Shown here: piece after piece, positions 10,621 through 44,449 of the stretch
Layout: each line of letters starts with the position of its first letter
How positions within the stretch are numbered: the first letter of the stretch is position 1
Assembly: GCA_030704615.1 (NCBI GenBank)
Contig: CM060733.1
Coordinates: 35,092,001-35,156,000, forward strand
Source: Takakia lepidozioides
Taxonomy: Eukaryota; Plantae; Bryophyta
Length of the DNA: 64,000 nt
Reading direction: 5' to 3'
The notes under the pieces: model-generated
What the model was told of the DNA's origin: nothing
The model's database searches: none
Seen by the model: the letters and a program-made list of their open reading frames with translations, nothing else
Program-made: the position numbers and the translations under genes

Positions 10621-10939
10621 CAAAGAGGGACTTTTAGGGTTTACAAAAAGGTTAAAAAACTTAAAAAGTTGCCCATCACGGTAGCGTGAACAGACTTAGA
10701 GCGAGCGGGAGGGAGAGAGAGAGAGGGTTGGGACTTAGAGCGAGCGAGCGGGAGAGAGGGCAAACATGCATGGGAGTCCCGCAGTTGGATCAACCTTCGC
10801 ATTTGGAGCAAGCAACCCTAGAAACGCTAGGGTATGTGTGCAAGGAGGTTTCGGCTGGGAGCCCGCCGTTCTTGGGAGAGTCAGCTTTGTCTTAGCAGGC
10901 CGTGTTTCAATCTCTACCCGCTCGGCCTTGATTTTACAG

Positions 10940-13570
10940 CACGGAGCAGAGCTGGCATGAGTTTCTAAAAGATCCTTCACGATGGTGGGACAACCGCAAT
11001 CGCAAGGTGTTGCTTTTTCTTAATGTACGATGTGAAGAAGTTTGTCCATCCTGCAAATGTGGGTTGTTGGCTCCTGTTAGTACCATGATTTGGTATTCTT
11101 CCTGATGTTTACAAGGTTCTTGGGAGAGTTAGCTTGGTCTTAGCAGGCCGTGGTTCAATCTCTGCCCACTCAGCTGCACCGTGGTGGTTCTCACTGACCA
11201 ATCCGACATTACCTGACTACAGAAATAAGCATCACACTGAAGAGGTCCTCTTGGGTTCATGGTCAGTCAAATCCTCCATGGGTCATGACACAAGGTCGAG
11301 GACAATGTGGTGAGGGCACCTTCTTCTTCAACCTATTTCAGCCTGTTTTGCCCTCTCATCAGACTCGGCCCTTCATTTGCAGCACGGAGCAGAGTTGGCA
11401 TGAGATTTTTAAAGATCCTTCACGATGGTGCAACAACCGCAATGGCAAGGTGTGGCTTTTCCTTAATGTACGATGTGAAGAAGTTTGTCCATCCTGCAAA
11501 TTTGGGCTGTTGGCTCCTGTTAGTACCATGATTTGGTATTCTTCCTGATGTTTCAAGGTTCTTGGGAGAGTCAGCTTGGTCTTAGCAGGCCGTGTTTCAG
11601 GCCATGTGCCATCGTCAAAGCTGAAATTGTACTAGTTGTCATTCTGACCACTGCCCTAGTGGACATGTATGCCAAATGTGGGTGCAGCAAGCCTGATGCA
11701 AAGGGAGAGTTCGACAACATGGCTAAATGAGATGTGGTGTTGTGGACTGCCATGATTGTAAGGTGTGTGTAGCATATGTGTGGGAGTAAGGCTTTGGAAA
11801 CCTAAGAACAAATGATGTGGGAAAGGATGAAGCCAAACCAGGTCATGTTCATTTGTGTTTGTTAATATGCATATGCGAGCCTAGCAGCCCTGGGAAGGGG
11901 CCAAGAGGTTCATGGTGGCATCATCAAAGCTGGAATTGTACCTGATGTCATTCTGAACATTCCCCTAGTGTACATGTATGTCAAATGCGAGCCTGGTAGC
12001 CCTGGAAAGGACGCAAAGGTCCATTATCAAATCTGGAATTGTACCACTAGATGTCACTCTAAACACTGCCTTGGTGGATATGTATGTCAAATGCACGCCT
12101 GGCAGCCCTAAAAAAGGGTACAGAGGTCCACGGTGATATTGTCAAAGCTGGTATTGTATCTGATGTGATTCTGAACGTTGCCGTAGTGGACATGTATGCC
12201 AAGGTTGCAGGGTGCAACTACAAGGATACATGGCTGTTTTGATAATATGGCTGAATGAGATGTGGTACCAGCCTAGCCCATAATTGCACTTAACTAGAGT
12301 AGGCAATGAGTGAAGACGGGGTTTGTGATGACATCGTCCAAGCTGGAATTAAACAAATGTTGTTCTGAACTATGCCTTTGTGGACTTGTATGCCAAATTG
12401 GGGTGCATGGAGGATGATGATCCCAGGATATGCACAACAGCGGCGCGGGATGGAGGTTTTTTGGAGAGGTCTATGAGCAAGTGGTGTGGGAAGGGATACT
12501 GCAGCGCAACCACATCGCGTTTGTTACATTTGCAACATGTGTGCAAGCCTGGCAGCCCTGCAAAATAGCAAAGAGGTTCGTGGTAACATCGTCCAAGCTG
12601 GAATTGTACTAGATGTCGATCTGAACTTTGACATGATGCCAATGTGACAACAGGAAAGTATCCAGAAACAGGTCACAGAGACGAGGAGAAGTTGTGGAAT
12701 GGTGAGACAACCGAGGGAAAAAGGTTAATGCCTGTTAGATTATAGAGGGCAGACGCAATTCAGCATAGGAACTAGTGTGATAAGCTGAGTTGGGTGTTTC
12801 CTAGAACAAATCTAGGCTGTCATTATCAGCTGCAAGACAAGGAAGTATGCATGATTTGTGCAGAAGCAGTGATAGCTGAAAGAGCAGGGATAGAGTATGG
12901 GTCCAGATTCATCCAAGAGGGCCAGATTTCAAGCACATGATTACCTATGATTACCTGTGGATTTAGCTATAAGAAACCTACATGGGTAGATGGTGAACTG
13001 GAAGCCGCAGGAGTAGCGGCACAATTGATAAAATCAAGCACTGCTAATAAAGGCACCTTCTTCAACACATTTCACCCTGTTTTTTCCCTCTTATCAGAAC
13101 CGGCCCTAAATTTTAATGTCTGCAAGTTAGCTGGTTGAGTGAATCTAGTTTGGAGTGACTTTGACATGATATTGCCAATGTGACAACAGGAAAGTATCGA
13201 AAAACAGTTAACGGAGATGAGGGGAAGCTGTGGAATGAATACTTTTCTGACCCCAGTCAATGGTGGGACAACCGAGGCAAAAAGGTAAATGCCTGTTGGA
13301 TTACAGAGAGTAGCAGATGCAATTGAGAATAGGAACTAGTGTGGTAAGTTGAGTTGGGTGTTTGCTGGAACAAATGTAGGTTGTCATTGTCAGCTGCTAA
13401 CAGCAATGCAAGGATATATGCATGATCTGTGCAGAGGCATGGATAGCTGAAGGAGCAGGGATAGAGTGTGGGTCCAGATCATCCAAGAAAGCCGGATTTC
13501 AAGCTCCAGATTACCGATGATTCCCTGTGGAAGGATAGCTACAAGAAACCTGCATAGGTAGATGATCATG
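10940..13570 (+). pseudogene. Rearranged fragments of OSB-type PDF-motif plus PLS-class PPR gene(s), cargo of Pack-CACTA 1
   Basis: WHEFLKDPSRWWDNRNRK|gt (two copies); TNPTLPDYRNKHH...NPPWV; IHPRGPDFKHMI...SYKKPTWVDG; PPR motifs TALVDMYAKCG...FDNMAK*DVVLWTAMI and EVHGGIIKAGIVPDVIL. Many stops and frameshifts. Confidence 0.85.
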
Positions 13571-14681
13571 GTAGATGGTAGATAGTTTGGAGTGACTTTG
13601 ACATGATACTGCCAAAGTGACAATAAAAAAGTATCCATAAACAGGTAACAGTAGCAGACGCAATTCAGCATAGGCACTAAAGGCAAACTCTCCTTCCCCG
13701 GAAAGGTGTGTGTTGGTATATGAGCGAATAAATATTTTATCTAAGAATATAATTTCAAAAATTCGTTATTTAATAATGTGCCACTGTCCCATGTTGGTCA
13801 AAAGTAATAAATAATAATAATAATTATTATTATTATTATAGTAATTGTAATAACAATAAATTAAATCCCCAAACCCCCCCCCCCCCCCCACAGCGACGCG
13901 TGTCAATTGACATGAGGAACCACGTGTCAAAATCACGATGCGACACATGTTGACGTCTGATTCCCTCCTTTGCAGTCAAATGGCGTCGCAGTCTGACACG
14001 TGGCGTGTTCTGTAGAGAGCACGTGTCTCTCTTACACAGCGGCTGACATGGACCCGTTCAGTCATTCAGTAAAGCCAGCATGTATGACTACCCCCACAGC
14101 TGCTCAGGCGCCACGTCACAGCCAGGCTGGCGAGTCATATCTGCCGTGCCACAACTGACTAGGGTTTTACGACTGCAGAGTCATGAAGTCGTAAATGGCT
14201 TTCATAACTGCATTTGCAGTCATAACATAGAGTCGTAAAAGCCGCAATCTGTTGTAGTGAGTGTTGGGCATCCCTCAGTTCTCACTGAGTTATGAGTTGG
14301 GTGTTGAGCTCGAGAGTTTCTTGCCGCCTGACAAACCAAGTCCCCTACGATTGTGGGAATTTGTAAAGGGAGGGACGTCGCTAGCAAATCTACGACCCAG
14401 AATTCCTCCTGCCCCTACCCGAGATCCCACTTGGGAATAACTGATCACTGGCATTGCTCATTCTGATTTTCTGTTTTGCGTAAATGATGTGGTAGTGTTT
14501 CCAAGGGTTTGTTTTCGCCGTGAGACCGTGGATTTGTACAAGCCCGAAGCAACTAAGAGCTATCCTGCTCACACTCTACTGGTAAAGGAAAAGGTGGTGT
14601 GTAGTGTGAATGCAGGGGAGTGACATTGAAATTTTTATTTTTACTCACTGAGATTCTTCATTTCTACAAAAGAAGGGACCG

Positions 14682-15370
14682 TGTCGTGCGCATACATATC
14701 GCTACACAAATACATCGCTGTCCAAAACCACACAACACATGTGCACGCACGCCACACACTAGTATACCACTAGTCCACCACTAGTCCAACCACTAGTCCA
14801 ACCACTAGGCTACAACTAGTCAGTCACTAGGCTGCCACTATGTTGCCCACTATGGCAGTCACTAGTCCACACAATAATAAAGAAGAAGAATACAAGCACA
14901 AGCTCATGCGAGCTCACAAAGCTGAAGCATAAACTCATGCATAAATAAACTCATCACTCAAATACAAGTCAAGCCAAGTGCACCCCACGCCATGGGGAAT
15001 CCACACTACGGCGCCATAGCTAGGCGCGGTGAGGCTCAACTCGAGAAAGATGAGCCTCCCGCGCTTGCCGTGAAGATAACCACTCCAGGGCCTAAATCTG
15101 CCTTGACCCCTGGATTGACACTTGGGCCAATCCCAAATGTCAATATGTAAAAGCTAGCTATTTCCTAGCTAGTTTCACACTAGTGGTAAAATAACTTGAC
15201 AGCTGTCGTGCGCATACATATCGCTACACAACTACATCGCTGTCCAAAACCACACAACACATGTGCACACCACACACTAGTATACCACTAGTCCACCACT
15301 AGTCCAACCACTAAGCTACAACTAGTCTGTCACTATGTTGCCCACTATGGCAGTCACTAGTCCACACAAT
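14682..15370 (-). repeat. 3' repeat block of the Gypsy-DNMT element: A1 (15370-15204), gc, B2 (15201-14882), A2 (14875-14682)
   Basis: A is duplicated (tgtcgtgcgcatacatatcgctacac...actagtccacacaat, rich in ACTAGT). B is nearly identical to 22091-22411. The junction GACAGCTGTC at 15198-15207 is palindromic. A PPT-like TAGGGGGGCG lies just 5' of A1 on the minus strand (15371-15380). Confidence 0.9.
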
Positions 15371-15471
15371 CGCCCCCCTAGCTGGTGCTTAGGTCCCTCT
15401 AAGTCCAGGTAGCCACAAGATGTGATAGTGACCATAGCCTCACTAAGTCCTCCATCATTGTCCCTACTACC

Positions 15472-16200
15472 TCAAACTCGATAGATCAAGAGGTCGGATG
15501 CAAGAGTTGCCCCATCGTTAGTCGCCGTCTTGCAACCTGTGAACTTGAGAAGAAAATATGGTGAAAAGGAGGCAAGTGATGCTTGTTTGCTGAACCTGTA
15601 GCCCATGGCTAACCAAGACACCTGAATATCCCAATCTCCTAAGTGTCCCTTCTGCAAGCCATACTTACACAAACCCCTCTTCACCGTCTGAACGACTCGC
15701 TCTGCCAAGCTATCGGCCTCAGGATAATCCCGAGAAGTGGTGCAGTGGTCTATCAAGGCTTTATGACACAAAGCCTGAAACTCCCCCAAGAACTCTCTCC
15801 CTTGGTCCGTGAGTACCTCAGCTGGAGCACCGAATCGGCTAATCACACGATCCAAGAATACATACGCAGCCCCCTCACTAGCCTTGTCAGGCAATGGAAC
15901 CAACTCAATCCACTTGGAGAAGTGCTCCACCATCACCAACACATATCTGTGGTGGCGCATAGTCAGTGGCAACGGTCCTGCGAAGTCAAGACTTCACCTG
16001 TAGCCCAATCCCATGATTGGTAATGATGCAACTGTGGTGTAGGGGTGTTGAATGAAGCACGCACCCTGTCACACATCATGCCCACCTAGCCAATGCTCTG
16101 TATGCATACCACGCCACCAATACTGCCCCTGCAGTAAATTGTGAGTGTGTCGCACTCCAAAATGCCCCAACTCCTCATGGGCCCGCACCCGACCATCCTC
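15472..16200 (-). pseudogene. Gypsy integrase (HHCC zinc finger plus rve DDE core), truncated at the C-terminus
   Basis: HEELGHFG...YWWRGM...CDRV; DFAGPLPLT...VMVEHFSKWIE...RFGAPAEVLTDQGREF...LAERVVQTVK. Confidence 0.92.
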
Positions 16201-16527: not shown

Positions 16528-17628
16528 TCATCCTGCTGGCTCGTGCATGGATTGCGACTCAAATCCATCCGTATCCCGATTGACCAAACCCGGTCGATGC
16601 ACAACCTGAAAGTCATACTCTTGGAGTATGAGTGCCCACCGTGCAAGCTTCCCCGTAAGCTTATCTGACTCCATCAACCACTTGAGTGGCTGGTGATCCG
16701 TGACAAGGGTGAAGAGATTGCTGTATAGATAGCACGTGAAGTGTACCACGGCCCACACTGCAACTAAGCACTCTCCCTCATATGAGCTGTACTTATCATC
16801 TGCAACATTGTTCGATTGGCTAGCATAAGCCACTACTAACTCTCTTCCCTCATCATCCACCTGTGTGAGCACCGCTCCAAGCCCCAGCATGCTCCAATCC
16901 GTATGCAGCTGAAAGGGACATCCCCTGATAGGTCGTCTCAGGATAGGCGCCGAGGTTAACCTCGCCTTGAGCTCTTGAAAAGCTCGTTCCTGCTCATCTT
17001 CCCACTGCCACTCCTGGTCCACCTTGTTCAGCTTGGTTAGAGCCTTTGCAATAGCACTAAATCCCTTGACAAACCGTCTAGAATAGTTTGCCAACCCCAT
17101 GAAAGCTCAAACTCGGCTCACATCCGTGGGGCATGGAATTTGTGCAATGGCCTCTACCTTAGTTTGCTGTACCCCCAATCCTCCAGGATATATCATGTGA
17201 CCCAGATACTCAATCTGGTTGTGGAAAAACTTGCATTTCCCCGGATGCAACTTCAATCCGCGCGCTCTCAAGCGCTCCAATACCACCTGAAGATGTCTCT
17301 CATGCTCCTCCATCGTAGCACTAAAGATGATGATGTCATCTATGTAACACCGAGCAAAGTCCACCCCTGCTAGAATCCTATCCATGACTCTCTGAAACTC
17401 TGCAAGAGCATTCTTAAGCCCAAATGGTAAGAACCGCCACTGATATAGGCAATCATTGTCGTGCTCATTGATCCCCCAGAATATTGTCTTCTGCTTGTCC
17501 GCCTCCTTGATCGGCAACTGGTGATATCCGGATCGTAAATCCAAAGTGTTAAAGACCTTAGCAAGCCCGATGGTATCAAAGATCTCCTCTGGTGTTGGCA
17601 TTGCATACTTATCGGACTTGTCTGACAA
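16528..17628 (-). pseudogene. Gypsy reverse transcriptase plus RNase H (frameshifts and stops)
   Basis: LDLRSGYHQL, LPFGLKNA, CYIDDIIIFS, KCKFF...YLGH; RNase H LHTDWS...VVAYAS...EGECLVAVWAV...TDHQPLKWL...LARWAL. Confidence 0.95.
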
Positions 17629-18359
17629 TTTTACAGCCGGTAATCACCGCACATACGTCTCTCCATCCAATTGCCATAGACATCCTTCTTGGCTGGCATC
17701 ACTGTGGCTGCAGCATACTCTCCACCAGAGAGCTCCACCAAACCAGCCTCCTAGAGATCTTGAGTCCTCATCTGAATCAAAGACCTCTTCATGTCACTGT
17801 ATCTATAGGGTCTCCGAAAGATTGGTGTGTCAGTGGCCAACTCAATACAAATCTCTTGACCCTTCAGTGCTCCCAAGTCTTTCAAACTGAAGGCAATGCA
17901 ATTCAAGTAAGCTTTCAGGAACCGCCATATACGTCATCTCTCTCCTCCGGTGACAATGGGTCCAATGTCAGGCTCCCAATTGTCCTCCGTAACTGCAACC
18001 TTAAGTCTAGTGGGCTTAGAGGTAGAGGACGCGTCTAGTGGTTGCTATGTTGCAACCTCTTGAGTAGTATTCCCTGCCTGCTCAGTCAATGACAAGGCCT
18101 CATCCTGCCCCATCATCTCATCCTCGAGGACTTCCTCAACCCGAGAAAAATCCCCAACCTCATCCATCACCGCTGCCTTGGCTGCCAACTCCCTCTGAAC
18201 CTCGAGCACCTCCCACGTGTGCCATGGATGCCTGCACCCCGTGGTCCTCTCATGTTTGCCCCCACTCACTGCCTGTACCGTCTCGGTAGGCAGAGAGACC
18301 ATCGAGGGAAGTGTACTCTGCACTCTGCATTGCTCAGCCATAGCCAAGCTGATAATCCC

Positions 18360-19380
18360 GGTTAAGCAATTGAGATCCATTACTTGCCCCAACACCTGAC
18401 GACGTGATGCCTCAGAAAGAGACGGCACCGCCGTGGTAAGACCCATTGCCCGCTCACGCTCGTCAGCATTAGGCTCCACTAACTGCTGCAACTGAGCATC
18501 CCACAGGAAGCCAGGTCCATTATTCCGGAAAGCATGCGATCCTGGGAAGTTGAGCAGTGTAGATAATGCTGCTCGTGGTTGACCCACCTTGTTGACCACT
18601 GCCAAAAGCGAACAGTCATCATGTCTCACACACTGAGACTGCCTCCCTGTGTCCAAAATGCTATCCACTGTGAGGTGTGCTGCCGCTGCACCCCATCAAA
18701 TGCACGCTTGAGCAGTGCGGGTGGCATCAAGTTAGTCCACCATAGCCGTGGACGATGAGCCCGTGACCCCACTGTAGCTGCATCTAGCAACACTGCTGCC
18801 CAAGCCACGACCGGACTTGATGCACACCTGGAGGTGGTTTCGCAGGTGGCTGACCCTGTTGAGGAGGACGACAGGGAGCTTTCTGACCAGGCCATCACCC
18901 TGGCCCAAGAATCGCCCATCAGTGGCACATTCTCCAAGATGTATGCTGGAGATACAGCTTGATGAAGCTGCAAGTGGCGCAAAACCCGCACCATCTCCCA
19001 AAACAGACCCGACCTTGAGTCTCGCAATCCATTGCCATGCCCGGCTGATGAATGCCCTTGGCAGGGCCAACCTGCCACTACCAGATCAATGGAGCCAACC
19101 CGCTCCAAATCCTGCACCCCCAGCAACGAAATGTCTACTGGCAAGGCCTGCTGATATCCACGAACTGCAGACACCAGCAACAACTCAGGGTACTGCTGCA
19201 CCAACTGAGCAACATGGCGAAGTGAACGTGTCGTGCAGTCTCATCCCTCTCCATATACAGGTAGCGCTGAACTCGTATACCTACCTGTAACACAACAGCC
19301 AATCCGGTACTGATCCCGCCAAACAAGTCCAGAAGACAAATGCCTTCATCCGGATATTGCCACACGATCGGTATGGTGTC
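18360..19380 (-). pseudogene. DNA (cytosine-5) methyltransferase domain, DNMT3-like, embedded in the retroelement pol region
   Basis: Motif I LLDLFGGI (about 19312-19335), motif IV DLVVAGWPCQGHS, GLRDSRSGLFWE, motif VI YILENV, motif VIII AHRPRLWWTNL, motifs IX/X ERERAMG...RRQVLGQVMD. Canonical order, spread over 3 frames. Confidence 0.9.
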
Positions 19381-20029
19381 CAATGGTGACAACTGAGGTG
19401 GTCCTGGTGCAATCCCCGCACTGTCCTCCTCTGTACAAAAGCCTCTACCCAGGCTTGTTGCACCCGTCAATCAGCAACCCACTGCAAATCCTTGCTCGAG
19501 CCCCACAATGGAGTATGAGCAACCATAGGAGGCAACTCCGCCATACCATGCATGTCATCCTGCTCTCCTGGAGGTGACACATCCTCTGAATGAGTGTTGC
19601 CATCCAACAACTCTCCAGGCCAAGTCACTACAGCTGTGAATGCTGCTAGTGTCGGCATCTTGCCCCGTTGGGTTCCCATAACTCCTCTTATGAACGTCAC
19701 AGGGAGCTACTCTTGTAAGGACACCCGAGCCCAAACCCGGACTGACTCTTACCTCCACCTACGGAAAGGTCTTGGCCTAATGAGAGGGTGGAAAACTACG
19801 AGGAAGAGAAGCTAAAGCAATGCCTAACCCCAGCATGCCCTCATCCCAACACTCTTTTTCTCCTCTCTTCCCTCACTTGCATGACCATGGAAATATCATG
19901 AAGATACTCCTCAAACCGCCCTCCACGAGCTTCAAAATTTGGCCTTCAAGACCGCATGCTAGTCCTCAAGCAGTCCACCAGTGCCTCCACGAGTTAGCAT
20001 AGGCCGTCCATATGTCAACACGGGCCACC

Positions 20030-20640
20030 ACAGACTAGCACAGGCCCACACAGATCACTGGTCACAGCCGTCACAACCCCACACAGGCCACAGGTCACAG
20101 CCCGTCACAGCCCAAAAGGCCATAGGCACAGCCTGTCACAGTCCATCACAGCCCCACAGGCCATAGGTCACAGCCTGTCACAGTCCCTCACAGCCCCAAC
20201 GGCCACAGGGCACAGCCAGTCATAGTCCCTCACAACCCCAAAGGCCACAGGGCACAACCAGTCACAGCCCTACACAGGTCACAGGGTCACAGCTCCATAG
20301 GCCACAACCTGTCACAGTCCCTCACAGCCAATCACAGCCCCTCATATCCCCAAAGGCCTCAGGCATAGCCTGTCACGGCCCTACACAGGTCACAGGGGTC
20401 ACAGCCCCAAAGGCCACAGGCACAGCCTGTCACGGCCCTACACAGGTCACAGGGGTCACAGCCCAAAGGCCACAGCCCGTCACAGCCCCACAGGCCACAG
20501 GGCACAGCCTATCACAGCCCGTCATAGCCCGTCACAGCCCCACAGGCCACAGGGCATAGCTTGTCACAGCCCATCACAGCCGTCACAGCCCCACAGGTCA
20601 CAGGGCACAGCCTGTCACAGCCCGTCGCAGCCCCATCCAT
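20030..20640. repeat. Degenerate tandem array of about 9-11-bp units (gtcacagcc/ccacagg) within the 5' internal region of the Gypsy element
   Basis: Continuous cacagccc / gtcacag / ggccacagg units over about 600 bp. Confidence 0.85.
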
Positions 20641-22090
20641 GGCCACTCATGACAGTTTAGCCATTTCTCGAAGGGGTTTAGCCACGCCAAGCTAGGGTTT
20701 GTGTCTCTTGGACTCTAGGCTTTTTTGCACCGAGCTATGGCGGCTGTGAGGAAATCAGCAAGGTATTCTTGCTCTTTGTGGCCCCCACACACCACCAATA
20801 GTAGCTCTAATTCCAAAGGAAGATGTTTGCAATCGAAACTAAGTGCACAAGCTTTCTTTTAACTCACAAAACAACGCCATTGATCCCTATGGCGACTAAC
20901 CAAACATGGCTTACTTCCAGCCCTTGTAGGCACTTATTCATGCGCTCTCCTTGGCTATAGAATGTGTCTTAGAGCCTATTCCAACCCCCTACACCTGCCA
21001 CTTCAAGAGCCATGCTCTATCTAGGCTTGTAGTTGAAACCCCAACTCAGAACACGCTCTACAAGTGTCGGACTGTCACATAAGAGTAGATCAGCCCCTTA
21101 CCTTCTCTTCTAGCTCTCCAAAGCTTAAAGATGGAGGCCTAACTAGGCTGAATGCATGCTCCACACATGCCCTACAGGGAAACCAACTCCTTCATTCCTT
21201 TCTTGCACTCCCAAACCTGAAAATGCAAGCCTTCAACGGGCTGAAAGCATGCTCCACACATGCGTTGCCATCACATAAGAGAAGTCAGCCCTTCCCTCTT
21301 CCTTGCTTGCCCTCCAAGCTTGAAGATGGAAGCTTCAATGGGCTGCATGCATGCTCCACACATGCATCATCTTCACACAAGAGGTAATATCAGCCCCCTA
21401 TCTTGGCTCCTTGGCTCCTTGATGCTCTCTAAGACAAGACTAAGCACTCCACAGCCTTTGCCAAGCTCCTGAAACCCTAAGGCTTACATTTCCAGCCACA
21501 AGACACTCATTTTGTGGTGCAAGAGCTCTTCATCCAAGCTCTGAAACCCTAGGTGCACATTCCATGGCCTTGCCGCACCTCTTAGCTCCTGTTCCAGCCC
21601 TGCTCTTGCCATGACAAGAGCCCTCTCAATGCTGAAGCTCGAGATTGAAACCCAATCTCAACATACTCCACAAAGTGCATTGATTTGCCCCAAGCCAAAT
21701 CAGCCCTTTCGCTTGGTCTTGCAATCCTTCACACAATGAAAGCTCGCATTCCCAAGTCCAGTTCTCAGCTTTGCCACCAAAGCCACTATAACCTGCTCTT
21801 GACTGGTCCTCTTCCCAATCGTGCTTGCTCATGCATGTACACAATCTGAAACCATCAAGGTGCTCTGGAATTACCTGCAGCATGGTGCTTTCATCTCTGA
21901 AGCTGAAGATCGAATGCCAAGGTCTACCACCTCGTAACTCAAATCGCCTCCGTTTCTAACAACCAAGAGCTCCACGGTACTCCTTGCATAACAACCTGGT
22001 TTCTCTCATTCTCAAGCAAAAACCACAAGTGCTACAACTAACTCGTATCTGGCACTTACAGATACGAGCTCATCTTTCTCGAGTGATTAG

Positions 22091-22411
22091 GAAGAAGAAT
22101 ACAAGCACAAGCTAATGCGAGCTCACAAAGCTGAAGCATAAACTCATGCATATATAAACTCATCACTCAGATACAAGTCAAGCCAAGTGCACCCCACGCC
22201 ATGGGGAATCCATACTACGGCGCCATAGCTAGGCGCGGTGAGGCTCAACTCGAGAAAGATGAGCCTCCCGCGCTTGCCGTGAAGATAACCACTCTAGGGC
22301 CTAAATCTGCCTTGACCCCTGAATTGACACTTGGGCCAATCCCAAATGTCAATATGTAAAAGCTAGCTATTTCGTAGCTAGTTTCACACTAGTGGTAAAA
22401 ATAATTTGACA
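22091..22411 (-). repeat. 5' terminal repeat B1 of the Gypsy-DNMT element
   Basis: About 320 bp nearly identical to 14882-15201; begins TGTCAAA on the minus strand; not followed by an A copy or a recognisable tRNA PBS. Confidence 0.9.
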
Positions 22412-22506
22412 ACCGCTTCATCATCTCACACTATGTATCTGGGTGGGATTCGAAGCTCAGTGCTCCCTCGGACAGGTAGTGGTTTCTCTCTACTACCTCA
22501 TGCTTG

Positions 22507-24800
22507 CACTACAGGAAAAAGGGGGGCCTTTGCGATGCCCGAGCCACGCCGCGGCCATGCCGCATCGTCGGGAAAACGCCCATTTTGGGCAAGGGGCATG
22601 TGCAGAATTTGCAACGCCTGGCCGTCGCCCGACAGTCGCATGGGCGTCGCCAAAATTTGACGTATGGGGGTCGCGAGCCCCCACCCCAACTCCCGCGACT
22701 GCCGGACGTCGCTTTTCAGGCCGTCCGCGCCGATGGCAGGGGCCTCCTTGGAGCGACGTCTCGCCGTCGCGGCCCTCCAGCCGATGACGTTGGTGAGGGC
22801 TACGGCGCGGCATTGCATCCCTTTTTTTTTTCTAACCTGCCCGGGAGTCCCATCCTAAAACCCAAAAACACGTGGCGTAAGCCGGATGGTACGCCAAGCG
22901 ACTATTGGGCATGGCAAAAAACAGCAGGAGCAGGAGTCGGGCTCCGCCACGCCCGGGCGTGGGTTTGTGCGACGCTTTGGCGTCGCTTTTGTTTATATTT
23001 AATTTAAAAAAAAAAAAAAAAACAACGTGGCGCAGGTGGGTGGTGGGCTCCGCAATGCCAGGGCGTCGCTGCTTGCGACCCTCGGACCAAAAAAATACGT
23101 CGCAGGGGGGGTCGGGCGTTGCCGCCCGCAAATGGGATTTACGACTCCCTACCATCGCGGCTTGCGACCCCCGCCCAAAAAGCACGGCGACGTGCTGCAG
23201 TCGTGTGGGCAGCCTGGTGGGGGGGGGTTGATTTTGGGGGTGAATTGGGGGTGGTTTTTGTTTTTTGCCTGGTTTTGTTTTTGGGGATGGGAGACCTTAC
23301 AGTTCCATTTATCTGATTTAGCAGGTACACAATTGAGCAAGCATGAATCGAGGGTGAGGATGGTGCGACACATGAATAAGATGGAAGATGAAAAGATGGA
23401 AATATATTTATAGGAAATGAGCTGAAAAGCTCACAAGGGTTCAGTAGGCTGACCCTGGGACCTACATGGACTAGGACTAGTCATCCTCATCCTCATCCTC
23501 AGTGGAGGACTCAGAGCTATCCGATGAACCTGATGACTCCGCGCCCTTTGCCAGTGCACCTAAATGAGGCGACGTTCTCCTAAGTCCCGCAGAGCTGTCA
23601 TCCAAACGCTGGCCATGACCCCCGACCTCATCCATACTAGTGCCACACTCATCCCCTCCGTGTTGGCCATGTTCTTCATGAGGGATTGCCAACCATGCTC
23701 CTTGGCGTAGTTGTACTCTACCGGAGATGGCTTCATCTCAAACTCGAGTTGCTACACATGCCACAAATTAAAGTCAGTTCTTCGCGATGATGGAGCCAGA
23801 AAGAAGACATAACAAAATCTATAGGGAAGTGCGACTTACAAATCGCAAGATAAAACCCTTGGATCCGCCGGCACCCCACTTGAGTGTGGATTCGTGCTTG
23901 TCAAGGCGGACTGTTGTTGCTTCGCGTGCCCGGTCAAATTTGGCCTTGTTTGCGGCATCATTCTCTCCCGCAATGAGTGCATCCCACGATACCTATGCCC
24001 TCCCCCCCCCCTAACAATTAGTGAATTACATATATACGTTGCATCGAATCCACCTCATTAATGCACATGCGACAAATGGAAGGTGACATGATTCAGGATT
24101 TGCCAACCTGTATAATTCCATGAGGTGCTTTGGGTATGGCCCCCTTTTCCATTGCCCTCCGAATGATCTGTCTGGTACGGTACCTCCTGTTCTTAAAGTT
24201 TCGCCCCACCATCTCCATCACCCTTGTGTCACTTCAATTGCCCGGAAACCGGCGGTCTAACTCACGGGCATACGTCCGCTTTGCGCCAAAGTGCTGATCA
24301 GCCCACTCGATGTGCAAAGGGAACCACCTCAAGGCGAGTTCGAAGGCTGGCTTCTTCATAGCCTCCCAGAATGCACTGCAGGGGTCACCATGGCGATTCA
24401 CCTCCATCGGTGGCACCACTATCTTTGCCAACTCCACGTCCTGTATCGCCAAGGGCATGTTCTTCTTCCCACCCTCTCCCTTCTTTGTAGCCTCCTTCCC
24501 CTGCTCTTTTTACCCCACTGCCCTCCCCCACATGCACACTCACCTCTTCCTCTCTATGGGACTTCTTCTTCTTCTTCTAAAAAGAAACAAACAACAAAGA
24601 AAATCGTGCATGCAAAAGAAAGGATAAAACATGGAACAAGGTGCGATAGTTGTACCTTTGCAAGCTTGTCCGACTCGCCCCCGGTGTCACCCGATGTGGC
24701 AGGAGTCCCCGTTGCCGGATGTGCCCGCGCTATCCCCTCCCGGAGCACCACTGGAAGTAGATTCCAGACGTGGAGCATAGCCGGCGGTGGCGCCCCGTAG
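22507..24800 (-). mobile_element. One end of a third CACTA element with decayed TnpA/ORF2-like exons; other end not identified
   Basis: CACTACAGGAAAAAGGGG at 22507, then GC-rich subterminal repeats (22520-23220). Minus-strand fragments FELALRWFPLHIEWADQH...RELDRRFPGN*...GRNFKNRRYR and an acidic tail SSESSTEDEDEDD. Right coordinate approximate. Confidence 0.5.
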
Positions 24801-25502: not shown

Positions 25503-28500
25503 CTACCCATGTGTTGTATCCCGCTGCAATAGAGTATCGACCTCGTTGAAACTCATAATGGCCTGGTGAATGAAGTTGTCACGTTTGGGAACGCAAACCA
25601 TCCTCTTCAAAAATATGAAATACAAATGTTTGCAGGGTATAAATTTACCTCTCTTGCCCAAACTGGTTGATAACATATTCACAAAATCAGGACATGTGCA
25701 ATTGGGGAAATTGGAAACCGTGATGTCGTACGTCCTGTCATGAACAGTAGATGTGGAAGTGATGATTGTGAATACCTGACCATATCCTGGATCGGGTACT
25801 TCCGTGGTGCTTCCAACACGAGCTTGGAGCATTTTTGCGGACTCCACTTTGCCAAAGTGTTCAGCGGTTGGAGGGAAACGCCGAACGAGCTTTCCATCTC
25901 GTTTGGTTGGCCACAAGTCAGGGATTTGTCGGGGGGACCCGGGAGGACGCAGAAGTAGTAGCACATGCATGGAGTTGGGGTTGTCTAGCAAGGGAAAAGC
26001 CTGCCTCCTCCAACATTTCAATCTCCCGAAATCTGAGATGTGTTCCCACCTTCACGAGCCAAACGGTTGGAGGAGATGGCTTCATCACTACGGAAGGACG
26101 CACAGTTCCATGCACACATCTGGCACAATCATCTGCGCAGAACCAGAACTTGTGGTTCTTGGCTTCTGGTTGACCGTATGGACGCATCAAACTCGTGAAA
26201 GTCAGAGCAGGAGTTCGGGCACCACCTCTGGATATAGATGAAGTGCACTTTTTGAAATTAGTTGCCCTGATCGCTGTACATTTCACACGAGACCCTACAC
26301 TTGTGCGTTCTATGTACCAAACGTGGTCGGGGCATGCGGACTCAAGCACATCAACGGGGTTGTTTCTCTCCTGCACCATTTTAGTGGCACTGTTTGATGC
26401 TGGAGCTTGCCGTCGTGTTGGAGGTTCCTCCACAATGGAGGTTCCGGACATGGAGCTGTCATGCAGGGGAACACGAGGCTTCGAGAAGTTATCACGGTCT
26501 GCCCTATGCGAATCGGAATCCGAACCAGGTGGAGTGTTCAATTTCCTCTTACAGGAGCTGAATCTCTCCTCCCCTTCAAGATGTGGAACTCTAGAAACAA
26601 GTGACATTCCCTGGCATACATGCTCACCGCCCGTGCTATCTTGATTGGATCCCCAGATCTGTTTGCAGCACGCAACATCAACTCCCATTTGTCCGGACCC
26701 TTGCCACCAACCCCACCTCGCAAGAAATCACGGTATCGGGTTTGTTGTTGCAAGGCACGTATCAAATCATCTGTTGTTGCCACATACAAATCTCGACCTC
26801 GTTTCTCAGACTGCTGTAACCATGCGTTGTGCACAGTTTCTGCCAAATTGCAAGATGGCATGTCCGCCATTTTCTTAATGGACATGTTCTGCAAAGTGGA
26901 GAACAACACTTCAAAACAGTGAACAGAAAACAACATAAAGAAAGCGAAGAGACAATAAAATGGAAAGTAAATGTATGAATAAAGCAAGAAATATAAGCCT
27001 CGTACCACTGCCATGGCTGCTCCCCACTGTCTATACCGGAAGTGCCAAAACGCCAGCCAATCTTCCAATGCTCTCATACTCTCAAGTGATGCAGCTCCAG
27101 AAGAGAACCACCAGGCACGAATTGTCTGGAACAAAGTGTCCGCCTCATTCATTGTTCTAGCATCTTTGTACTCTTTGCACAATTTATGGTGCTGAGTTTG
27201 CATCTCTGGTTTGATGTCCGACTTTGTATGTTTTTCCAGAGATTGTGTCCAATGGAATAGACATATACGCTCTCTTCCTCACATTGGCACTTTTGGGTCG
27301 CCCGATCCGAAGACAATATGAACAGCATTGAAATTTGCTTGAGCACTATCCGCCATGAAACTTGCGAAATTTGGAGATGGCAGCCCATGGCAGCCCATGA
27401 CACGTATTAGGGAATTCCACATGAGCTTCTGGAATTCCGTATCCTCGGATTGCATGTCACAAACTGCAATTGTCATAACTTGTTGGTACACTGGATCGTA
27501 GACATGACAAGCCATTGTCGTCCAATCCTTCACTCGTTTCACATGATCAAAAATAAGAAAACAGTTATGCAAGTCCCCAGTCTTCTGCATCCGCTTCACG
27601 AGGCTAACCCCACTGCCCTCCCCAACAGTCGACATTTTGAAAAGAAAAACTTTGATGACACCTTGACCTGGGAATACATTGTCCTGGATGTAATCGTACT
27701 TGCTCACTCGTTTCAACTCCAAAATGTTGTCTATGCAGCCTCTGATACCAGAGCCCATTCTTAATGCATTGATCTGATGCCGAATGTTAGGTGAACTCAA
27801 AGTGGAGAAATGATCCATGACCAGGTCCAATGCTGCACCGTCAAGTTTAGTCCCCACAGAATCCCCTTCACTCAAAATATGGCTTTTCAATAAGGACTTG
27901 CTTGCGCTAAGAGCAATTGCAGATGTTGTTGCGGATGGGTTTTTCCCGAACTCCTGTTTAATCAACCTCGATACTATCTCAACACTCTCCCTGTAATCCC
28001 CCTTTGAGACAGGATGGTTATGGAATCCAAAATGCACACAAGCTCTTGTCATTGTTTTCAAACGGTGGACAACATAGTACATTCTTGCTCCGCAGAGCGC
28101 CAAGCAGGATGGCACAAGTTTGCAGAATTTGCAGACGAAAGTGTTTGCCGGTGGTGGGGCAGTCCCAGGCTGAAATGGATTTTCCGCCAGACCCTCCCAT
28201 TCGCTTTGATTATGAACCCCAGACTGAAGAAAGTGTCTGCAAGTCAAATTATCACACCTAAGGTGTACATTGCAAACTGTTCTCCTGAAAACAAGCTTGT
28301 CATCATTCTGAATATTGGAAGTTTTTGTTCTGCACCACGAGTGCCTGTCGTGTTTCTTGTCCATTCCATGCATCATGATTGTTACACCTCTAACTCGCGG
28401 AGGAGGAGGCAGTTCGAATAGGATATCGCCATCAAAAGTCTCTGGCAAGAACTTCACAGGCACCTGCTTCAAAGATTCCCAATCAATTCCTCGCAACTCA

Positions 28501-29018
28501 CTTTTGAATCCAGCCATTCCTCCCATCGCCCGTAGTTTTGGAATGACACTACAAATCTTTTCTTCATCCGCTTCCACAACCACAGTAGGAAGGACTGGAT
28601 TTGGAATTTCACTTATGTCATCATCGGACGAATCCGAAAGCTCAACGATTGGAGTGGAGTACGTCTGTTCTTTTTTCACCACCACCTCTCTCTTGTCTTC
28701 AACGACCGAAGCAGCAGTCCCGGGCGTCACATATGACCCAAGGGACTTTCGTCGAGGCTCTCCAAGTACTCTGTATCGACCAGGGTGCACTCTCCACTGG
28801 TTGACATGAGTCGTCTCATCACGGTTTTGGAAAGAGTATTTCAACAACTTCCCTTTCAAATCGTACACCTCTTTCTCCAAAAAGATGGAGCCATTCTGCC
28901 GCTGAAAACGGGTAGCCAAGACATGTTCTAGAACAATTGCAAATCCATTGTCAAGGACTTCCTGGGAGAACGGCACCGGTTTGTCGTCAGAGAAGAACTC
29001 CGCTTTAGAGGAAGCCAT
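25503..29018 (-). mobile_element. Mutator/MULE-like transposase pseudogene (GCM/WRKY-like Zn domain, DDE core, SWIM finger)
   Basis: HSWCRTKTSN...C..HLRC..C...CKFC...CVHFGFHNHP; FDHVKRV...MACHVYD; FMADSAQANFNAV...CLFHW; SCNLAETVHNAW; SWIM CTCPDF...PCKHLYFIF. In-frame TGA at 27279-27281, a probable intron near 26890-27005, and frameshifts. Confidence 0.8.
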
Positions 29019-29876
29019 CTTCCTTCCTCGCGTACGTTGATACCTTGCTATCGCAGACCTTCAGTGTAAATCGGTTTACTGATGTCTCCAGAACACAGTT
29101 GAAGAATGAGCAGAGAATATGGCGGAGGAAGCTCAGACGATGACTGTGCATATTCTGTTATTCCTTCAAGATATGCAGCCGTCTATTTTAATTACTTTTC
29201 TTGTGGGCCCAGTGGTCAGAGTATCCCTAGGAGCAATGTCGGCAGCTGTTAAACCGTTAATCAAAACCTCATCAATAAACACAATAACAAGCCGACTTCC
29301 TGGAAGCATGCCACAGGATCTGAGGGTGGGATTGCAGATTAAGTAAATGTATCTTTATACTACTACCAATGATCATGCGCACCTGGAAAGTTCAAAATGT
29401 GAAACGAACGTAGGGTTGGCTAACAAGGATGAACGTGTATAATATCCCAAAATTTGTCATCAAACTCTCGTTCATTTACATACATTTGTCTAAGACTGTG
29501 CGCAAAGATTTCTGGGATTCGCTGTTATTTTTAAATATTGAAACCGTTCTAATAAAAGAACACGCGGTTTATTTTGGGCGACACGCGTCAGACATCGATA
29601 ACTGAATACGAACAGCTGTAAACTAATTGCTGGCATGTGCACTAATAAGGGAACGACTATGTGTAACGGTCACGCGAGAGGGAATCTGATGCTTCTAGAG
29701 ACAAGCAACAACGCACGTAATCCCGCAAGAAATCGGGAGTCGCTTCGTTTTTCTGCTTTTCGCGCTTAGAGGGAGAGTGGTAGTCAAGCTGGAGAGGGTT
29801 CCTTCCACAATACGAAAGAGAAGAAAGTCTCTTTATTTTACTTCCCTTAGAGAGAGACGCAGAGCAAGAGAGCAAA

Positions 29877-36488: not shown

Positions 36489-37772
36489 CTAAATGGCAGC
36501 TTGAAGCTCAGTCTTGTCCTCCATAAAGACTGCTTTGAATAGGTTTTTGTCAAGATCATAGTTCCAGTTTCCATTCCTCACTAGAAGTGCACCAATGCGT
36601 CCAATTTCGTCAGAAGATTTGGCTGCTGCTCCGCAGCCCCCAGTGGCCACAAAGACTTTTGTCTCATAGGAAGCCTGCTTGCCATCCACTGCATCAATGT
36701 AGGGATAACCGTGAGAGGTGTATGTAACAATGCATGGCTTCTTTTGTAAGGAATTGTAAGAAAGATCTGGAATCAATTGTAGGAGAACACTTTGTAAAAC
36801 GTCAACCTGAGCTTGTCCACCTTCACCGTGAAACCACTTCACGAAATCCTCGTGGCTTGATTTAGTCAGTGGGTCGTATTCTGTGTCCCCGATCTTCAGG
36901 TACGATTTGCCATCTGGATAGCGAATAGGTGGACATGCATAAATAGAATGCAAAGTGGGATGTGAATCTAGACGCCAAATGATTGAAGGCATGCCTTGCA
37001 ATCTCTTCTCTTCCTTCTCTCCAATTTCAGCCAGCAGCACTGACACAAGCTTAGTCTCCAGAACTAACTTCGAACTAGGAAGCAAGTAGTTGGAATAGGC
37101 ATCCGCACATATCAGGACTTTGAAAGCTGACAACACCTTTCCTCCGTCGGTGGTAATGGTCACGCCATTGCTGCTGGTTTCGACTGCTATCACAGTCTCT
37201 GGCACAAGGTAAGCCCCGTGTTTCTTAGCAACCGCTAACTGGGCTTTGACCATGGCCCTTGGATTCACGTACCCCGCCCCTCCGGTCTCTACGACACCGG
37301 CGTGATTGCTCTCAAAATGGAAGTATGGAAACCGCTGCTTCAGCTCGCCCACCCCATCTATCAATTGCACTGCTGCTCCATTTTCTTTTCCAACCTCAAA
37401 AGCTGTAGGCAAACTGTCACCCGCTTGTTTGTATAAGGGGGTGACTCTAAGAGATCCAACCGGATGATGAAAGCAGATTCCACTTTCCTCCTCAATGAGA
37501 CTATAGCTGGCAATTGATCGGGCTGCAAGCTTCGACCATACAGGGTCCTCGTCCACAATACGTGTGATGCGTCCCTCGTCATAATGAGAGGCAAACACTC
37601 CTGTATGGGCCTCCCAATCTGCAGGCTCTGGAGGTCCAATACCCACCACTGATTCTGATGCGAGAGAGAGATGGCGGCAGGCAGCTGACCCAATCATGCC
37701 CAACCCTAGCACAGCCACAGAAAAGACAGTGGACTCATGAAGCTGTGCCATAGCTCCAATCAACTTCTGCAT
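36489..37772 (-). CDS. Intronless FAD-dependent oxidoreductase, sarcosine oxidase/DAO family
   Basis: Intact 427-aa ORF; Rossmann motif VAVLGLGMIGSAA, ASHYDEGRITR, GYVNPRAMV, C-terminal GYPYID...GGCGAAAKSSDEIG. Confidence 0.88.
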   Translation of the reverse strand: MQKLIGAMAQLHESTVFSVAVLGLGMIGSAACRHLSLASESVVGIGPPEPADWEAHTGVFASHYDEGRITRIVDEDPVWSKLAARSIASYSLIEEESGICFHHPVGSLRVTPLYKQAGDSLPTAFEVGKENGAAVQLIDGVGELKQRFPYFHFESNHAGVVETGGAGYVNPRAMVKAQLAVAKKHGAYLVPETVIAVETSSNGVTITTDGGKVLSAFKVLICADAYSNYLLPSSKLVLETKLVSVLLAEIGEKEEKRLQGMPSIIWRLDSHPTLHSIYACPPIRYPDGKSYLKIGDTEYDPLTKSSHEDFVKWFHGEGGQAQVDVLQSVLLQLIPDLSYNSLQKKPCIVTYTSHGYPYIDAVDGKQASYETKVFVATGGCGAAAKSSDEIGRIGALLVRNGNWNYDLDKNLFKAVFMEDKTELQAAI

Positions 37773-38139
37773 GAGTGAAAGGAATCGTACAAATCAGAAA
37801 CATGAACAAGAGTTTGTTGAATTGGCAAAATTGAAGCTTCAGACCGGCCTCTGGATGGCAATAGAAATGGAAATCTTGAGTGCAGTGGTGAGAATTGGAC
37901 ATGAGAACTGCGAAAATCCGGTGGGTTTCTTACTTGAGCTGAAATTTGAACAAATCTCGCTTCATCAAACGCTTCAACTTACCCTTTTGAGGTAACTGTC
38001 TACTTCATGAAAGTGGAAGTTCGAGAAAAGGAGACTTGTTAGAGGACTTCGTGTATGGATTGATAGAAGACCTAGGCACTCCCGCTGCATAATTCGAACC
38101 CAAGAGACAAAGTCAGAGACAGAGAGATGCATGGAAAAC

Positions 38140-39010
38140 AGAAATGAATGTGACCTTGTTGGGCATCACGCCTTCCCGTAGCATATGCTCATACACTTGA
38201 AAGCCTCCAAACCACACCCATGCTGGGCATACCCTGCAATGATTGCACTCCATGAGACCACAATTCGTTCAGTCATACTGTCAAACGCTTCACGTGCATC
38301 TGTCCTCCCACATTTGGCATACATGTCGACAAGGGCAGTCTCCAGAATGATATCTTCTGTAAATCCAGCTTTGATTACATCAGCATGGACATTTCTCCCA
38401 AACTTGGCATACATGTTGAGAACGGTGTTGAGTACAAAGTTGTTTGGCTTGTTTGGCCACTTTCGATGATGTGGGTGTGCACCTCCTTTCCCATTTCAAA
38501 GTTTTGAATTTTGATGCACTCTCGCAAGAGACAGACATACGTATAGGAGTCTGCTGAAGTGCCTTGTTTGTTCAAAATGTGCAGTGCCTCTTTCAGTTGC
38601 CCTGCCTTACATAGTGTCCTCACATCCCCACAAGAGCCAAACGGGTTGTGCTGACTCCATAAGCAGAATAGCACGTACTACTGGATTAAACCAAGGAGTG
38701 TTCAACGAACCCTCAACCAATGGGGCCTTGCTTGTGTGTTTATGTGTGGGGTATGGTGATCTTGGATTTTTCTGTGAGAACCACCAGTTGGCATCTGAGG
38801 AGCGCCAGTTTGAAGACAGCCTCCAATAGACCAGGCTCCAAGCGTTTTTCAAACAACATGGAGCACCCTTGAGCAAGTTAACAATAAGGACTGTCTGTGC
38901 TGGCTTTACACTACAAAGATCAAAATTGTCATTAATTTCAGGGATAAAGATAGCCTCACCTTATCAAACCTGCTGGCCCACCACCGTGAAGGAACTGCTG
39001 CCAGAAATGT
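38140..39010 (-). pseudogene. PDF-motif plus PLS-class PPR pseudogene
   Basis: Degenerate EHFWQQF..PSRWWASRFDK|gt intron ag|KNPRSPYPTHKHTSKAPLVEGSLNTPWF, then DVRTLCKAGQLKEALHIL...YVCLLRECIK...ALVDMYAKCG...VVSWSAIIAGYAQHG. Frameshifted. Confidence 0.8.
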
Positions 39011-39619
39011 TCTGTTCCTTTAAATTGACCTGTGTGCAAGAACAAAGAGACCATGAGAACTTCACCAGCTACTGATTACCTCAGTCACTATTAAAGAGTC
39101 CAAGTTCTTTGAACATAGAGCTGCTAAGATCTCCAACCGGGACCTGCCATACCAATCTGGTCTCAATCATTCCTTTGTGTACCATGAAGAGCGACAAAGG
39201 AAAATCATCACCCGTTCTATTATCACCGATAGAGCAGTATTAAAACCCCTCCTGGATTGCTGGAATTCATTGATATCTACCTTGACATGAGACTAACTGA
39301 GAAGTCTCACCCTACTAACTGAGAAGAAAGTCAGATTCTTCCCTCATAGAATATCTACGGAATTCCAGCTTTGATGATGTCTCCATGGACTTTTTTGCCC
39401 TTTTCTAAGCCTGCCAGGCTTGTCCACCCCTTTCTTTGGGGCAGGGGACTTCTTCTCTTTCCCCATAAGCTGGCACCTGTCATGCAAACCCACAAGTTGG
39501 CCTCATTAGGAAACACCCTCTACATCCCAGATCAAAAACAAAAAAAACCAAGCATGTCGGGGGCTGAGAGCAGCAAGTGCCCGGGTTCTCGAGAGGGGGC
39601 AACAAAGAGAAAAGAAAAA

Positions 39620-42898: not shown

Positions 42899-43242
42899 GC
42901 CACCGCCATCGCCTTAAAGAGCCCGCATAGACGGCACTCACAGGAGCCATAAACACTCAAGGATTGGCAGCTCATGGTATCTGCAGCACGAGCACCATCG
43001 CTCCTCCTAAGCCACCATCGCGCGCACTCTTGCAGCGCAAAAAGAAAGACATTAGGGTTGCGCAGGGTTTTCCCCTGTCTGGCCCGTCATTCATCATTCT
43101 CAGGATGAAAAACATCCGCCAGCCTGTAGGCCCGACGGATGTTGTCCGTTTCTCATTCGCGGAAGATGAAAGACATCGTGCGTTCATCCTGTCTTGAACC
43201 CGACGGACGCAGTCCGCTTTTCATCTAGGTTAGATGAAAAAC
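42899..43242 (+). repeat. Left arm of an approximately 340-bp inverted repeat pair (partner 51392-51733)
   Basis: The same spurious translation MAAHGICSTSTIAPPKPPSRAL... appears on opposite strands at 42964 (+) and 51670 (-); both arms end in the hairpin ttttcatctaggttagatgaaaa. Confidence 0.85.
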
Positions 43243-44449
43243 GAGGGATTCCTTGACTAATGATTTAGAAAGGATGATTCCTGAACTGTCCACTGAAATC
43301 TCTGATCTACCATACATCATGGGGATCTATAAACTACACAAGAAAAAGTACAGGTGGATCACTAATGCCCACAAATGCATTTTTTAGTGGGCTAGCAAGT
43401 TTACTTACTTGTGCCACTATGACTCTTTTGCCGCTCGTGAAAGAGTGGGTGAAAATGAAGCTGGACACCTATGAAAAATTTCTTAAAGTCTCTACGTCTA
43501 TGTACTGGATTATAGACAGTATTATGGACTTTACCCTGAATTTACCTGATAAAATACATAGCATATTTGTGGCTGACATCACCCAATGCTATGAGAATAT
43601 ACCCTTATCAGGAGAAGATAACCTAGGTGCAGCCATTGCTTATGTGATTAAAATTGCCTTTGAGCAATATCATGCATCTCGACCTAGGTCCCAACATGTT
43701 TTATGGATCCAAACAAATGAAGGAAAATTTGGGAAGTGTAGGTGGGGACCTACTTCCCCTAAACCTGGCAGTTGGATCGAGCTGTCTGAAGCAAGGTTCA
43801 CTACAATACAAGATGGGCTTTTCGACTTTGTATTTGACTCATTTTTGAGTCGTTTGCGATATTTTTACTCCCAGCCTCCATAGTCAAACATGCATGACAA
43901 AGGTCAAGTCGTTTCAGTCAAGCAGTCGAATCCAGCTGCCAGGTTCTGACAGTGAAATGTGACAATAAAACCTAGGGGGTGACGTGTAGGCAGCACAGTA
44001 TGACGTGGCTATGACGTGTAGTAAAATGGTTTAACTGAATTATAAGGTGGATGTGTAATGAGTGGCTTAAGCGCAGAGTGACGTGGATGCATGGCGTGTA
44101 GTAAAGTGGTTTAACTGAAGTGGAACATATTGACTATGTTCCATGATGTTTAGTATATGGTTTGTCTGTAAATCAGTGATAGTGAGTTTGCTTGACTTTG
44201 TATAGTGTAATATTCTACTGTGAAGCAGTAAAAGATGACACATTTTAGTAAATATGTTTCACTCTGGGGGTGTATATACATATATACACTTTGACTACCT
44301 AAAATGAGCTGACTGAGACAACCAGTTAAGCAATGGCACGTGTAATCACAATATATAAATTATATAGCAATATATATGTGGATAATAAGAAGTTTAAAAA
44401 ATAACTATTTTTTCACTGATCCAGCACATTAATAATAAACTAATTGGTT

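Follow-up and report, generated by a model that had tools for sequence, protein, structure and literature searches.

The closest described relative of the element analysed here is KnitGypsy-Dnmt3 from the alga Klebsormidium nitens, which combines DIRS-like repeats with Gypsy domains (PMC5890265, legend of Fig. 4c) and whose Ka/Ks is given as under 0.2 (PMC5890265). As described there, it shares with our family the Ty3/Gypsy domains, an intronless, non-permuted DNMT3-like domain located between protease and reverse transcriptase (RT), and a DIRS-like repeat order, the match in repeat layout being to the published description and not to Klebsormidium DNA itself. Furthermore, both the RT and the DNMT of our family group with the Klebsormidium protein P0048 in the respective trees. 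In PMC5890265 the algal DNMT belongs to the Pol ORF, and P0048 is predicted as a single protein, whereas the domain of our family forms the end of ORF1 and is followed by a conserved stop; the hosts also differ, being an alga in one case and land plants in the other. The available text of PMC5890265 does not mention self-priming, the position of the polypurine tract (PPT) or circle-type joints, and Marchantia and Sphagnum are absent from its main text and the supplement files searched. Two further reports refer to 'streptophytes', with land plants unnamed in the parts available, and their supplementary trees may include bryophyte copies (10.64898/2026.05.21.726589; PMC12344493). The available portions of PMC8557442, 10.1101/363937, PMC6453930 and PMC8616336 contain nothing on the family, and literature searches, with most subscription journals and Repbase outside their coverage, turned up neither a report from land plants nor a description of the repeats.

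Tf1/sushi elements and plant Tcn1 share with our family a self-primer complementary to a site just after the 5' repeat, as well as a 4-bp target site duplication (TSD) and a DDE integrase (PMC6317226). As described, they have ordinary paired LTRs and chromodomains, whereas our family features a PHD finger, a methylase and permuted repeats. At the integrase C-terminus of the relatives, we met a PHD finger instead of the chromovirus chromodomain, and a long branch (100/99) separates the RT of our family from RTs with chromodomains. PAT/Ngaro-type DIRS elements have yet another layout, consisting of split direct repeats in the order A1...B1 A2 B2. These split repeats are common to our family and to PAT/Ngaro-type elements, some of which, such as SymbioDIRS-Dnmt3, also carry a DNMT3; however, they encode a tyrosine recombinase, while our family has an rve integrase, a PPT and 4-bp TSDs. 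Consistently, neither the window nor the Pfam searches of its relatives gave a tyrosine recombinase match, and rve is present. Among host enzymes, the DNMT3 proteins of non-flowering plants share the DNMT3-type catalytic domain but have a C-terminal DUF3444 of their own, whereas DRM is permuted and the window domain is non-permuted and lies inside a retroelement polyprotein (PMC6453930).

A decayed Ty3/Gypsy element with a DNMT3-like domain

The window, a stretch of 64,000 nucleotides from Takakia lepidozioides, contains a Ty3/Gypsy element of 7.7 kb (22411-14682, minus strand) that starts with TGTC, ends with GACA and is bounded by a perfect 4-bp TSD. We found the PR-RT-RH-IN domain order, an rve integrase, a primer binding site (PBS), a PPT and a short TSD, all typical of Ty3/Gypsy elements, with the protease present in relatives only. 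Ordered from the 5' to the 3' end, the features are:

22412..22415, minus strand: left TSD copy, 4 bp, from end comparison
22084..22411, minus strand: A1, first copy of repeat A, with TGTC start (element 5' end) and CA end; putative transcript start and self-primer inside
22068..22084, minus strand: self-primer binding site, a perfect 17-nt complement of 22264-22248
19713..22067, minus strand: non-coding 5' region with a tandem-repeat block at about 20020-20640; gag and protease undetectable
19333..19712, minus strand: remnant of the protease-to-methylase linker, profile matches with iE 3e-19 and 7e-5
18354..19344, minus strand: DNMT3-like C5 cytosine methyltransferase domain, with frameshifts near 19230 and 18680 and a 62-65-bp insertion near 18827-18890
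18039..18047, minus strand: stop codon of ORF1 in a read-through-type context, TAG CAA CCA, sharing its frame with RT
17107..18020, minus strand: reverse transcriptase (RVT_1, E 6.8e-29), with stops and one frameshift near 17620
16546..17106, minus strand: RNase H (PF17917, E 7e-32)
15547..16185, minus strand: integrase zinc finger and core (rve, E 1.9e-12), without the C-terminal part and PHD finger of relatives
15371..15414, minus strand: conserved block with the PPT at its end, directly before B1, from comparison of ends
15204..15370, minus strand: B1, first copy of repeat B, putative U3 start, from self-comparison and joint comparison
15198..15207, no strand assigned: B1/A2 junction with the 10-bp palindrome GACAGCTGTC, putative integrase attachment site, shared with other loci
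14876..15201, minus strand: A2, second copy of repeat A, 97% to A1; its end abuts B2 (putative LTR-tip joint)
14682..14875, minus strand: B2, second copy of repeat B, with GACA end (element 3' end); 84% to B1, with tandem-unit indels
14678..14681, minus strand: right TSD copy, 4 bp, from end comparison

A previous reading of this DNA from sequence only had described the copy as decayed, in agreement with our results: pol carries frameshifts and stops, gag and protease have been lost, and the integrase tail is missing, with alignments to relatives breaking off at 15547, where the relatives continue into the PHD finger. A profile built from the gag-protease regions of 24 relatives detected no gag or protease in the window and matched only the linker (19712-19333). 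Many contigs of a sequencing run of the host species cover the non-coding 5' region (19713..22067), at approximately half of the pol depth. The window copy cannot carry out any of the steps proposed below unaided.

The methyltransferase domain

The same reading had listed six C5-methyltransferase motifs upstream of RT. All of them are indeed present in canonical order on the minus strand (19332-18375), inside the TSD-bounded element and with RT, RNase H and rve downstream on the same strand. Their positions in the window translation are:

19332-19315, minus strand: LDLFGG
19072-19055, minus strand: GWPCQG
18940-18923, minus strand: ILENVP
18760-18728, minus strand: AHRPRLWWTNL
18461-18441, minus strand: ERERAMG
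18392-18375, minus strand: LGQVMD

The motifs are spread over three frames, and the three aligned pieces contain zero stop codons. The short insertion noted earlier between motifs VI and VIII measures 62-65 bp (around 18827-18890) and is skipped by contigs of related copies. The suggested Pfam check was positive, as the middle ORF matches PF00145 (E 2e-12; 47.6 bits against a cut-off of 22). The original assignment to the DNMT3-like, non-permuted C5 methyltransferases and to a Ty3/Gypsy family is supported. Compared by sequence with solved structures, P0001 matches DNMT3A best (E 6e-12), with DNMT3B second; a DRM-like chain (4onj) scores E 1.2e-8, DRM2 1.6e-4 and bacterial enzymes 3.5e-4 or worse. 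Foldseek likewise places DNMT3A in the top ranks for the AlphaFold model of P0001, a poor model (pLDDT 53; TM 0.34 to DNMT3A), and the ESM Atlas returned generic methylase clusters only.

Across 82 full-length domains, the catalytic motifs are strongly preserved (PCQ in 77, ENV-type in 80, RxR in 81), with all motifs within 73-81 of the 82. Comparing the window with 76 loci, we obtained dN 0.26 and dS 2.2 for the DNMT, the dS being near saturation, and dN 0.20 and dS 2.4 for RT, while dN/dS within the Sphagnum-type family was 0.58 for the DNMT versus 0.38 for RT. Selection on the DNMT across copies, which the earlier reading had proposed to assess, is thus purifying but weaker than on RT. We also built a DNMT tree from the 82 full-length domains (of 192 matches), the window domain, 2 partial domains and 5 bacterial sequences. 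Liverwort and moss proteins share a 99-supported group with the window domain. All element-borne DNMTs including Klebsormidium form an 85-row clade separate from the 5 bacterial outgroups, in a tree that does not include host DNMT3.

Distribution and domain order of the family

Searches with the window ORF identified 75 longer relatives, several of them fused to RT. Named relatives come from Marchantia polymorpha (many loci), Calypogeia fissa, Sphagnum and Klebsormidium nitens, and further Sphagnum species were added by profile search. Marchantia polymorpha contains near-intact ORF1s annotated as hypothetical genes, and a Coleochaete transcriptome provided a close RT-RH-IN-PHD relative. Among viral contigs, the search returned one weak, unrelated-looking locus. 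We additionally collected 80 metagenome loci from short-read assemblies, a set that includes duplicates and possible chimeras (L021 versus L072); most are Sphagnum-like, judged by near-identity to P0050.

The relatives have the domain order gag-zinc knuckle-protease-DNMT-stop-RT-RNase H-integrase-PHD. Among the window and the metagenome loci, all chosen by DNMT, RT lies 3' of the DNMT in 46 of the 49 loci with room, while the protease is found 5' of it in 54/62 loci and gag in 31/35. Because these loci were chosen by DNMT, the reverse test was taken from contig depth over DNMT versus RT. When 74,233 contigs of one host-species run, possibly the one from which the window itself derives, were placed on the element, the summed depth was similar over the two domains (0.55-1.0 million for DNMT and 0.69-1.0 million for RT), with 80 for a unique flank contig. 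The family is abundant in the host, and the summed depth, although it does not count copies, indicates a very large number of them. A search of cluster representatives with a relative retrieved 269 proteins at E 1e-30 or better; among the best 150 of these, 63 of the 68 long proteins carry RT, RNase H or integrase.

A second arrangement, RT-RH-DNMT-IN-PHD, is the commonest one among distant representatives and places the DNMT between RNase H and integrase (P0057, P0062, P0370, P0413, P0415 and others). Within the lineage, the DNMT has apparently moved to a different position.

An RT tree, from which 5/126 rows were dropped as too short and in which the named Chlamyvir, Phygy and Selgy references are absent, groups these elements in 48 rows, split from 73 other Ty3 RTs by the long 100/99 branch. 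Both the RT and the DNMT of the window nest among bryophyte sequences; together with the PF02458 acyltransferase exon and the PPR-like repeats described below, this nesting marks the window as land-plant DNA. The earlier proposal of a land-plant Gypsy element with its own DNMT therefore needs to be divided: such an element is present, but a separate acquisition in land plants does not hold, because RT and DNMT share clades with Klebsormidium. The element is of the KnitGypsy-Dnmt3 kind, which has been little studied so far, extended into land plants, and we consider this identity firm.

A conserved stop between DNMT and RT

The DNMT had initially been placed inside pol. It does lie directly upstream of RT, but a family-conserved in-frame TAG (18047-18045) splits the two, and throughout the family the DNMT is the C-terminus of ORF1 (gag-protease-DNMT). 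An in-frame stop occurs at all 49 junctions found (32 TAG, 17 TAA), 14-21 codons 5' of the first conserved ORF2 motif, and is followed by CAA in 47/49; the window reads TAG CAA CCA. The products of ORF1 (1,180-1,440 aa) and ORF2 (about 1,030-1,080 aa) are separate database proteins.

Plant viruses are known to use CARYYA as a read-through context (PMC4132726). At 43/49 junctions the third codon is CCC, not YYA, and the Sphagnum-type family has an ATG after the stop that is not found in the window or in L025. Conservation supports the stop plus CAA as a likely read-through signal; given the CCC codon and the ATG after the stop, re-initiation is possible in the Sphagnum-type family. A leaky stop would yield DNMT at Gag-like levels and RT-IN at lower ones.

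Split terminal repeats and self-primer

Self-comparison of the window revealed the repeat order A1-PBS-internal-PPT-B1-GC-A2|B2. The same order is complete in L037, L053 and L060 and partial in L009, L072 and L003, and the last 39 nt of B2 are 82-88% like the Sphagnum-type B. A third family, with unrelated repeat sequence, has the same PPT-B1-spacer-A2|B2 layout (L030:16640-17325) with a flush CA|TG joint. The canonical form, with two whole LTRs at the ends, was not seen in the window or in the loci compared. The TSD is perfect in 7/9 elements, one of the others having a mismatch and one a damaged end, and a G-rich PPT directly precedes B in 17 of the 19 ends examined. Four of eight B1/A2 junctions carry the palindrome GACAGCTGTC (window, L003, L009, L060), and the remaining four, among L037, L072, L053 and L030, have the spacers AT, AT, AC and GT, products that deamination of GC would give.

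Directly after A1, a perfect 17-nt self-complement is present in the window, L051, L057 and L060 (L057 and L060 being one insertion). Between the two families concerned, 10 of its 17 letters differ, yet pairing is still full. A self-complement of at least 10 nt was found in 13/23 left ends versus 17/300 random tests (random maximum 13 nt), and the window RNA folds with the self-primer pairing (z -7.1). Inspection by eye revealed no tRNA-type PBS after A1 (no TGG). Supported by this conservation, the site is likely a self-priming signal. A 9-bp hairpin directly follows it in the window (22043-22067).

The last letters of repeat A are CA, and B has TG at or beside its start. In the window (with point changes) and in L009, L053, L060, L072 and L030, A2 and B2 meet flush at their tips, whereas at this joint L044/L045 (one insertion) retain a PBS-like remnant and L037 a PPT remnant plus filler. 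PBS- and PPT-type remnants are typical of retroviral two-LTR circle junctions. The opposite permutation was found in 0/24 left ends, representing 21 distinct insertions.

We also considered and dropped single-B elements (A1-internal-B with TSD; L021, L026, L035, L077) as insertions of one-LTR circles, since L021, with a single B, and L072, with the full set, share their 3' flank, which recombination or assembly collapse explains. Readings as a Ginger-type DNA transposon or as a tandem insertion were discarded, because the element has an RT, a PBS and a PPT and its layout is found repeatedly.

Proposed integration route

We hold with moderate confidence that the window contains a decayed Ty3/Gypsy copy with a DNMT3-like domain at the end of the gag-protease frame and split repeats, of an element that is likely self-primed, probably enters the genome as a two-LTR circle opened in mid-LTR, and probably directs the methylase at its own new DNA. 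Transcription would start inside A1, and the 5' end of the RNA would pair with the site after A1 and prime the minus strand, as in Tf1. Plus-strand synthesis would start at the PPT, making B-GC-A the true LTR. The two LTR tips (A|B) would then be joined into a circle, and the DDE integrase would cut the palindrome GACA/GC/TGTC of the 5' LTR and join it to target DNA, producing the observed permutation.

The argument relies on the PBS after A and the PPT before B, which together define B-GC-A as an ordinary LTR; with this LTR, opening a two-LTR circle at the palindrome yields the integrated form as a circular permutation. Integration of such circles via a mid-LTR cut is what we strongly infer from these sequences. 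A symmetric circle has two equal attachment sites, so the absence of the opposite permutation from all 24 left ends demands an otherwise unexplained bias for the site in the 5' LTR. Speculatively, this bias could come from a late-finishing plus-strand end-to-end template jump or from differential methylation.

No such extra assumption is needed if the element passes on its split repeats in the manner of PAT/Ngaro-type DIRS elements, with RNA running into B2 and template switches at B1/A2 rebuilding the ends of linear or circular cDNA without tip joining. The repeat order is indeed the same as in DIRS elements. However, the PBS follows A1 immediately and the PPT immediately precedes B1, which gives B-GC-A the make-up of an ordinary LTR, with CA at the end of A and TG at or next to the start of B. 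In addition, the A2|B2 joints vary and retain primer remnants, which inheritance would not produce. We therefore regard DIRS-type inheritance as rather unlikely and favour two-LTR-circle integration.

More tentatively, and with slightly less than even confidence, we propose that a large, old branch of green-lineage Ty3/Gypsy elements moved its attachment site from the LTR tips to a mid-LTR palindrome and integrates two-LTR circles, and that the packaged DNMT3 methylates the circle and could select which of the two CHG-containing sites is cut. For other DDE retroelements, two-LTR circles are regarded as dead ends.

Role of the methylase

With its position as the sole guide, the likely target of the methylase is the element's own new DNA. 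Since the DNMT lies in the Gag-protease frame, it would be packaged into the particle together with the cDNA. There it would methylate the cDNA or the circle, which would arrive marked as host-like chromatin.

Alternatively, the methylase may be kept for another job, such as methylating the chromatin of the host, whether where the element inserts or at other places, or serving as a DNA- or RNA-binding decoy against silencing. Such options are listed in PMC5890265, where the Klebsormidium domain showed no activity in yeast, a result that the authors do not treat as decisive; moreover, the PHD finger on the integrase of relatives suggests that the element reads chromatin. On the other hand, the expected placement in the particle with cDNA disfavours this explanation, the near-invariant catalytic residues speak against a pure decoy, and DNMT3s of Symbiodinium retrotransposons methylate CG de novo (PMC5890265). 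We consider another job unlikely, and methylation of the element's own DNA is the role we retain.

Finally, the fact that the window copy is broken and without gag and protease would fit a host DNMT3 fragment captured once by one decayed copy, with the extra repeats a chance tandem insertion, but this is highly improbable, as the one-off capture that the sequence-only reading had named as its refutation is contradicted by a DNMT that is family-wide in other species, in the loci and in the host contigs, by an architecture and an order of repeats that recur in other species and in three sequence families, by a DNMT that is intronless and lacks the DUF3444 of host plant DNMT3s (PMC6453930; Pfam on P0005), and by purifying selection on it.

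Implications

These results extend retrotransposon-borne DNMT3 from one alga to land plants, including Marchantia polymorpha. Methylation mutants exist for Marchantia, which makes it directly testable why transposons carry the silencing enzyme of their host. These elements may have raised the numbers of DNMT genes counted in bryophyte genomes, and, lacking paired LTRs, they would probably escape LTR-finding software. The repeat anatomy accounts in concrete terms for the 'DIRS-like repeats with Gypsy domains' described in 2018 (PMC5890265) and points to circle integration by a DDE integrase.

Neighbourhood of the element

The flank at 22416-22900 is multi-copy among the host-species contigs. 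Beyond it, 25503-29060 (minus strand) contains a 593-aa ORF without Pfam match and, after it, frames that match a SWIM zinc finger weakly (E 0.002), a region that we take to be a Zisupton- or Mutator-like DNA transposon. Degenerate repeat clusters, partly duplicated between one another, occur at 10900-13600, 38180-39430 and 45000-49500; they are presumably PPR-like, although Pfam missed 2/2 short ORFs. Two ORF fragments on the plus strand (43278-43883 and 50078-50842) have no Pfam match and in our judgement resemble a Penelope-like reverse transcriptase. They are framed by a 325-nt inverted repeat (42918-43242 / 51392-51716). A direct repeat of about 1.5 kb, 91-97% identical, is present in two copies 13 kb apart (40615-42162 and 53593-55171), and a 500-N assembly gap lies at about 59300-59830. 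An FAD oxidoreductase gene (PF01266, E 5e-30; 36489-37793, minus strand) is intact in a single frame and apparently intronless, and 60996-61514 (minus strand) encodes a PF02458 acyltransferase exon.
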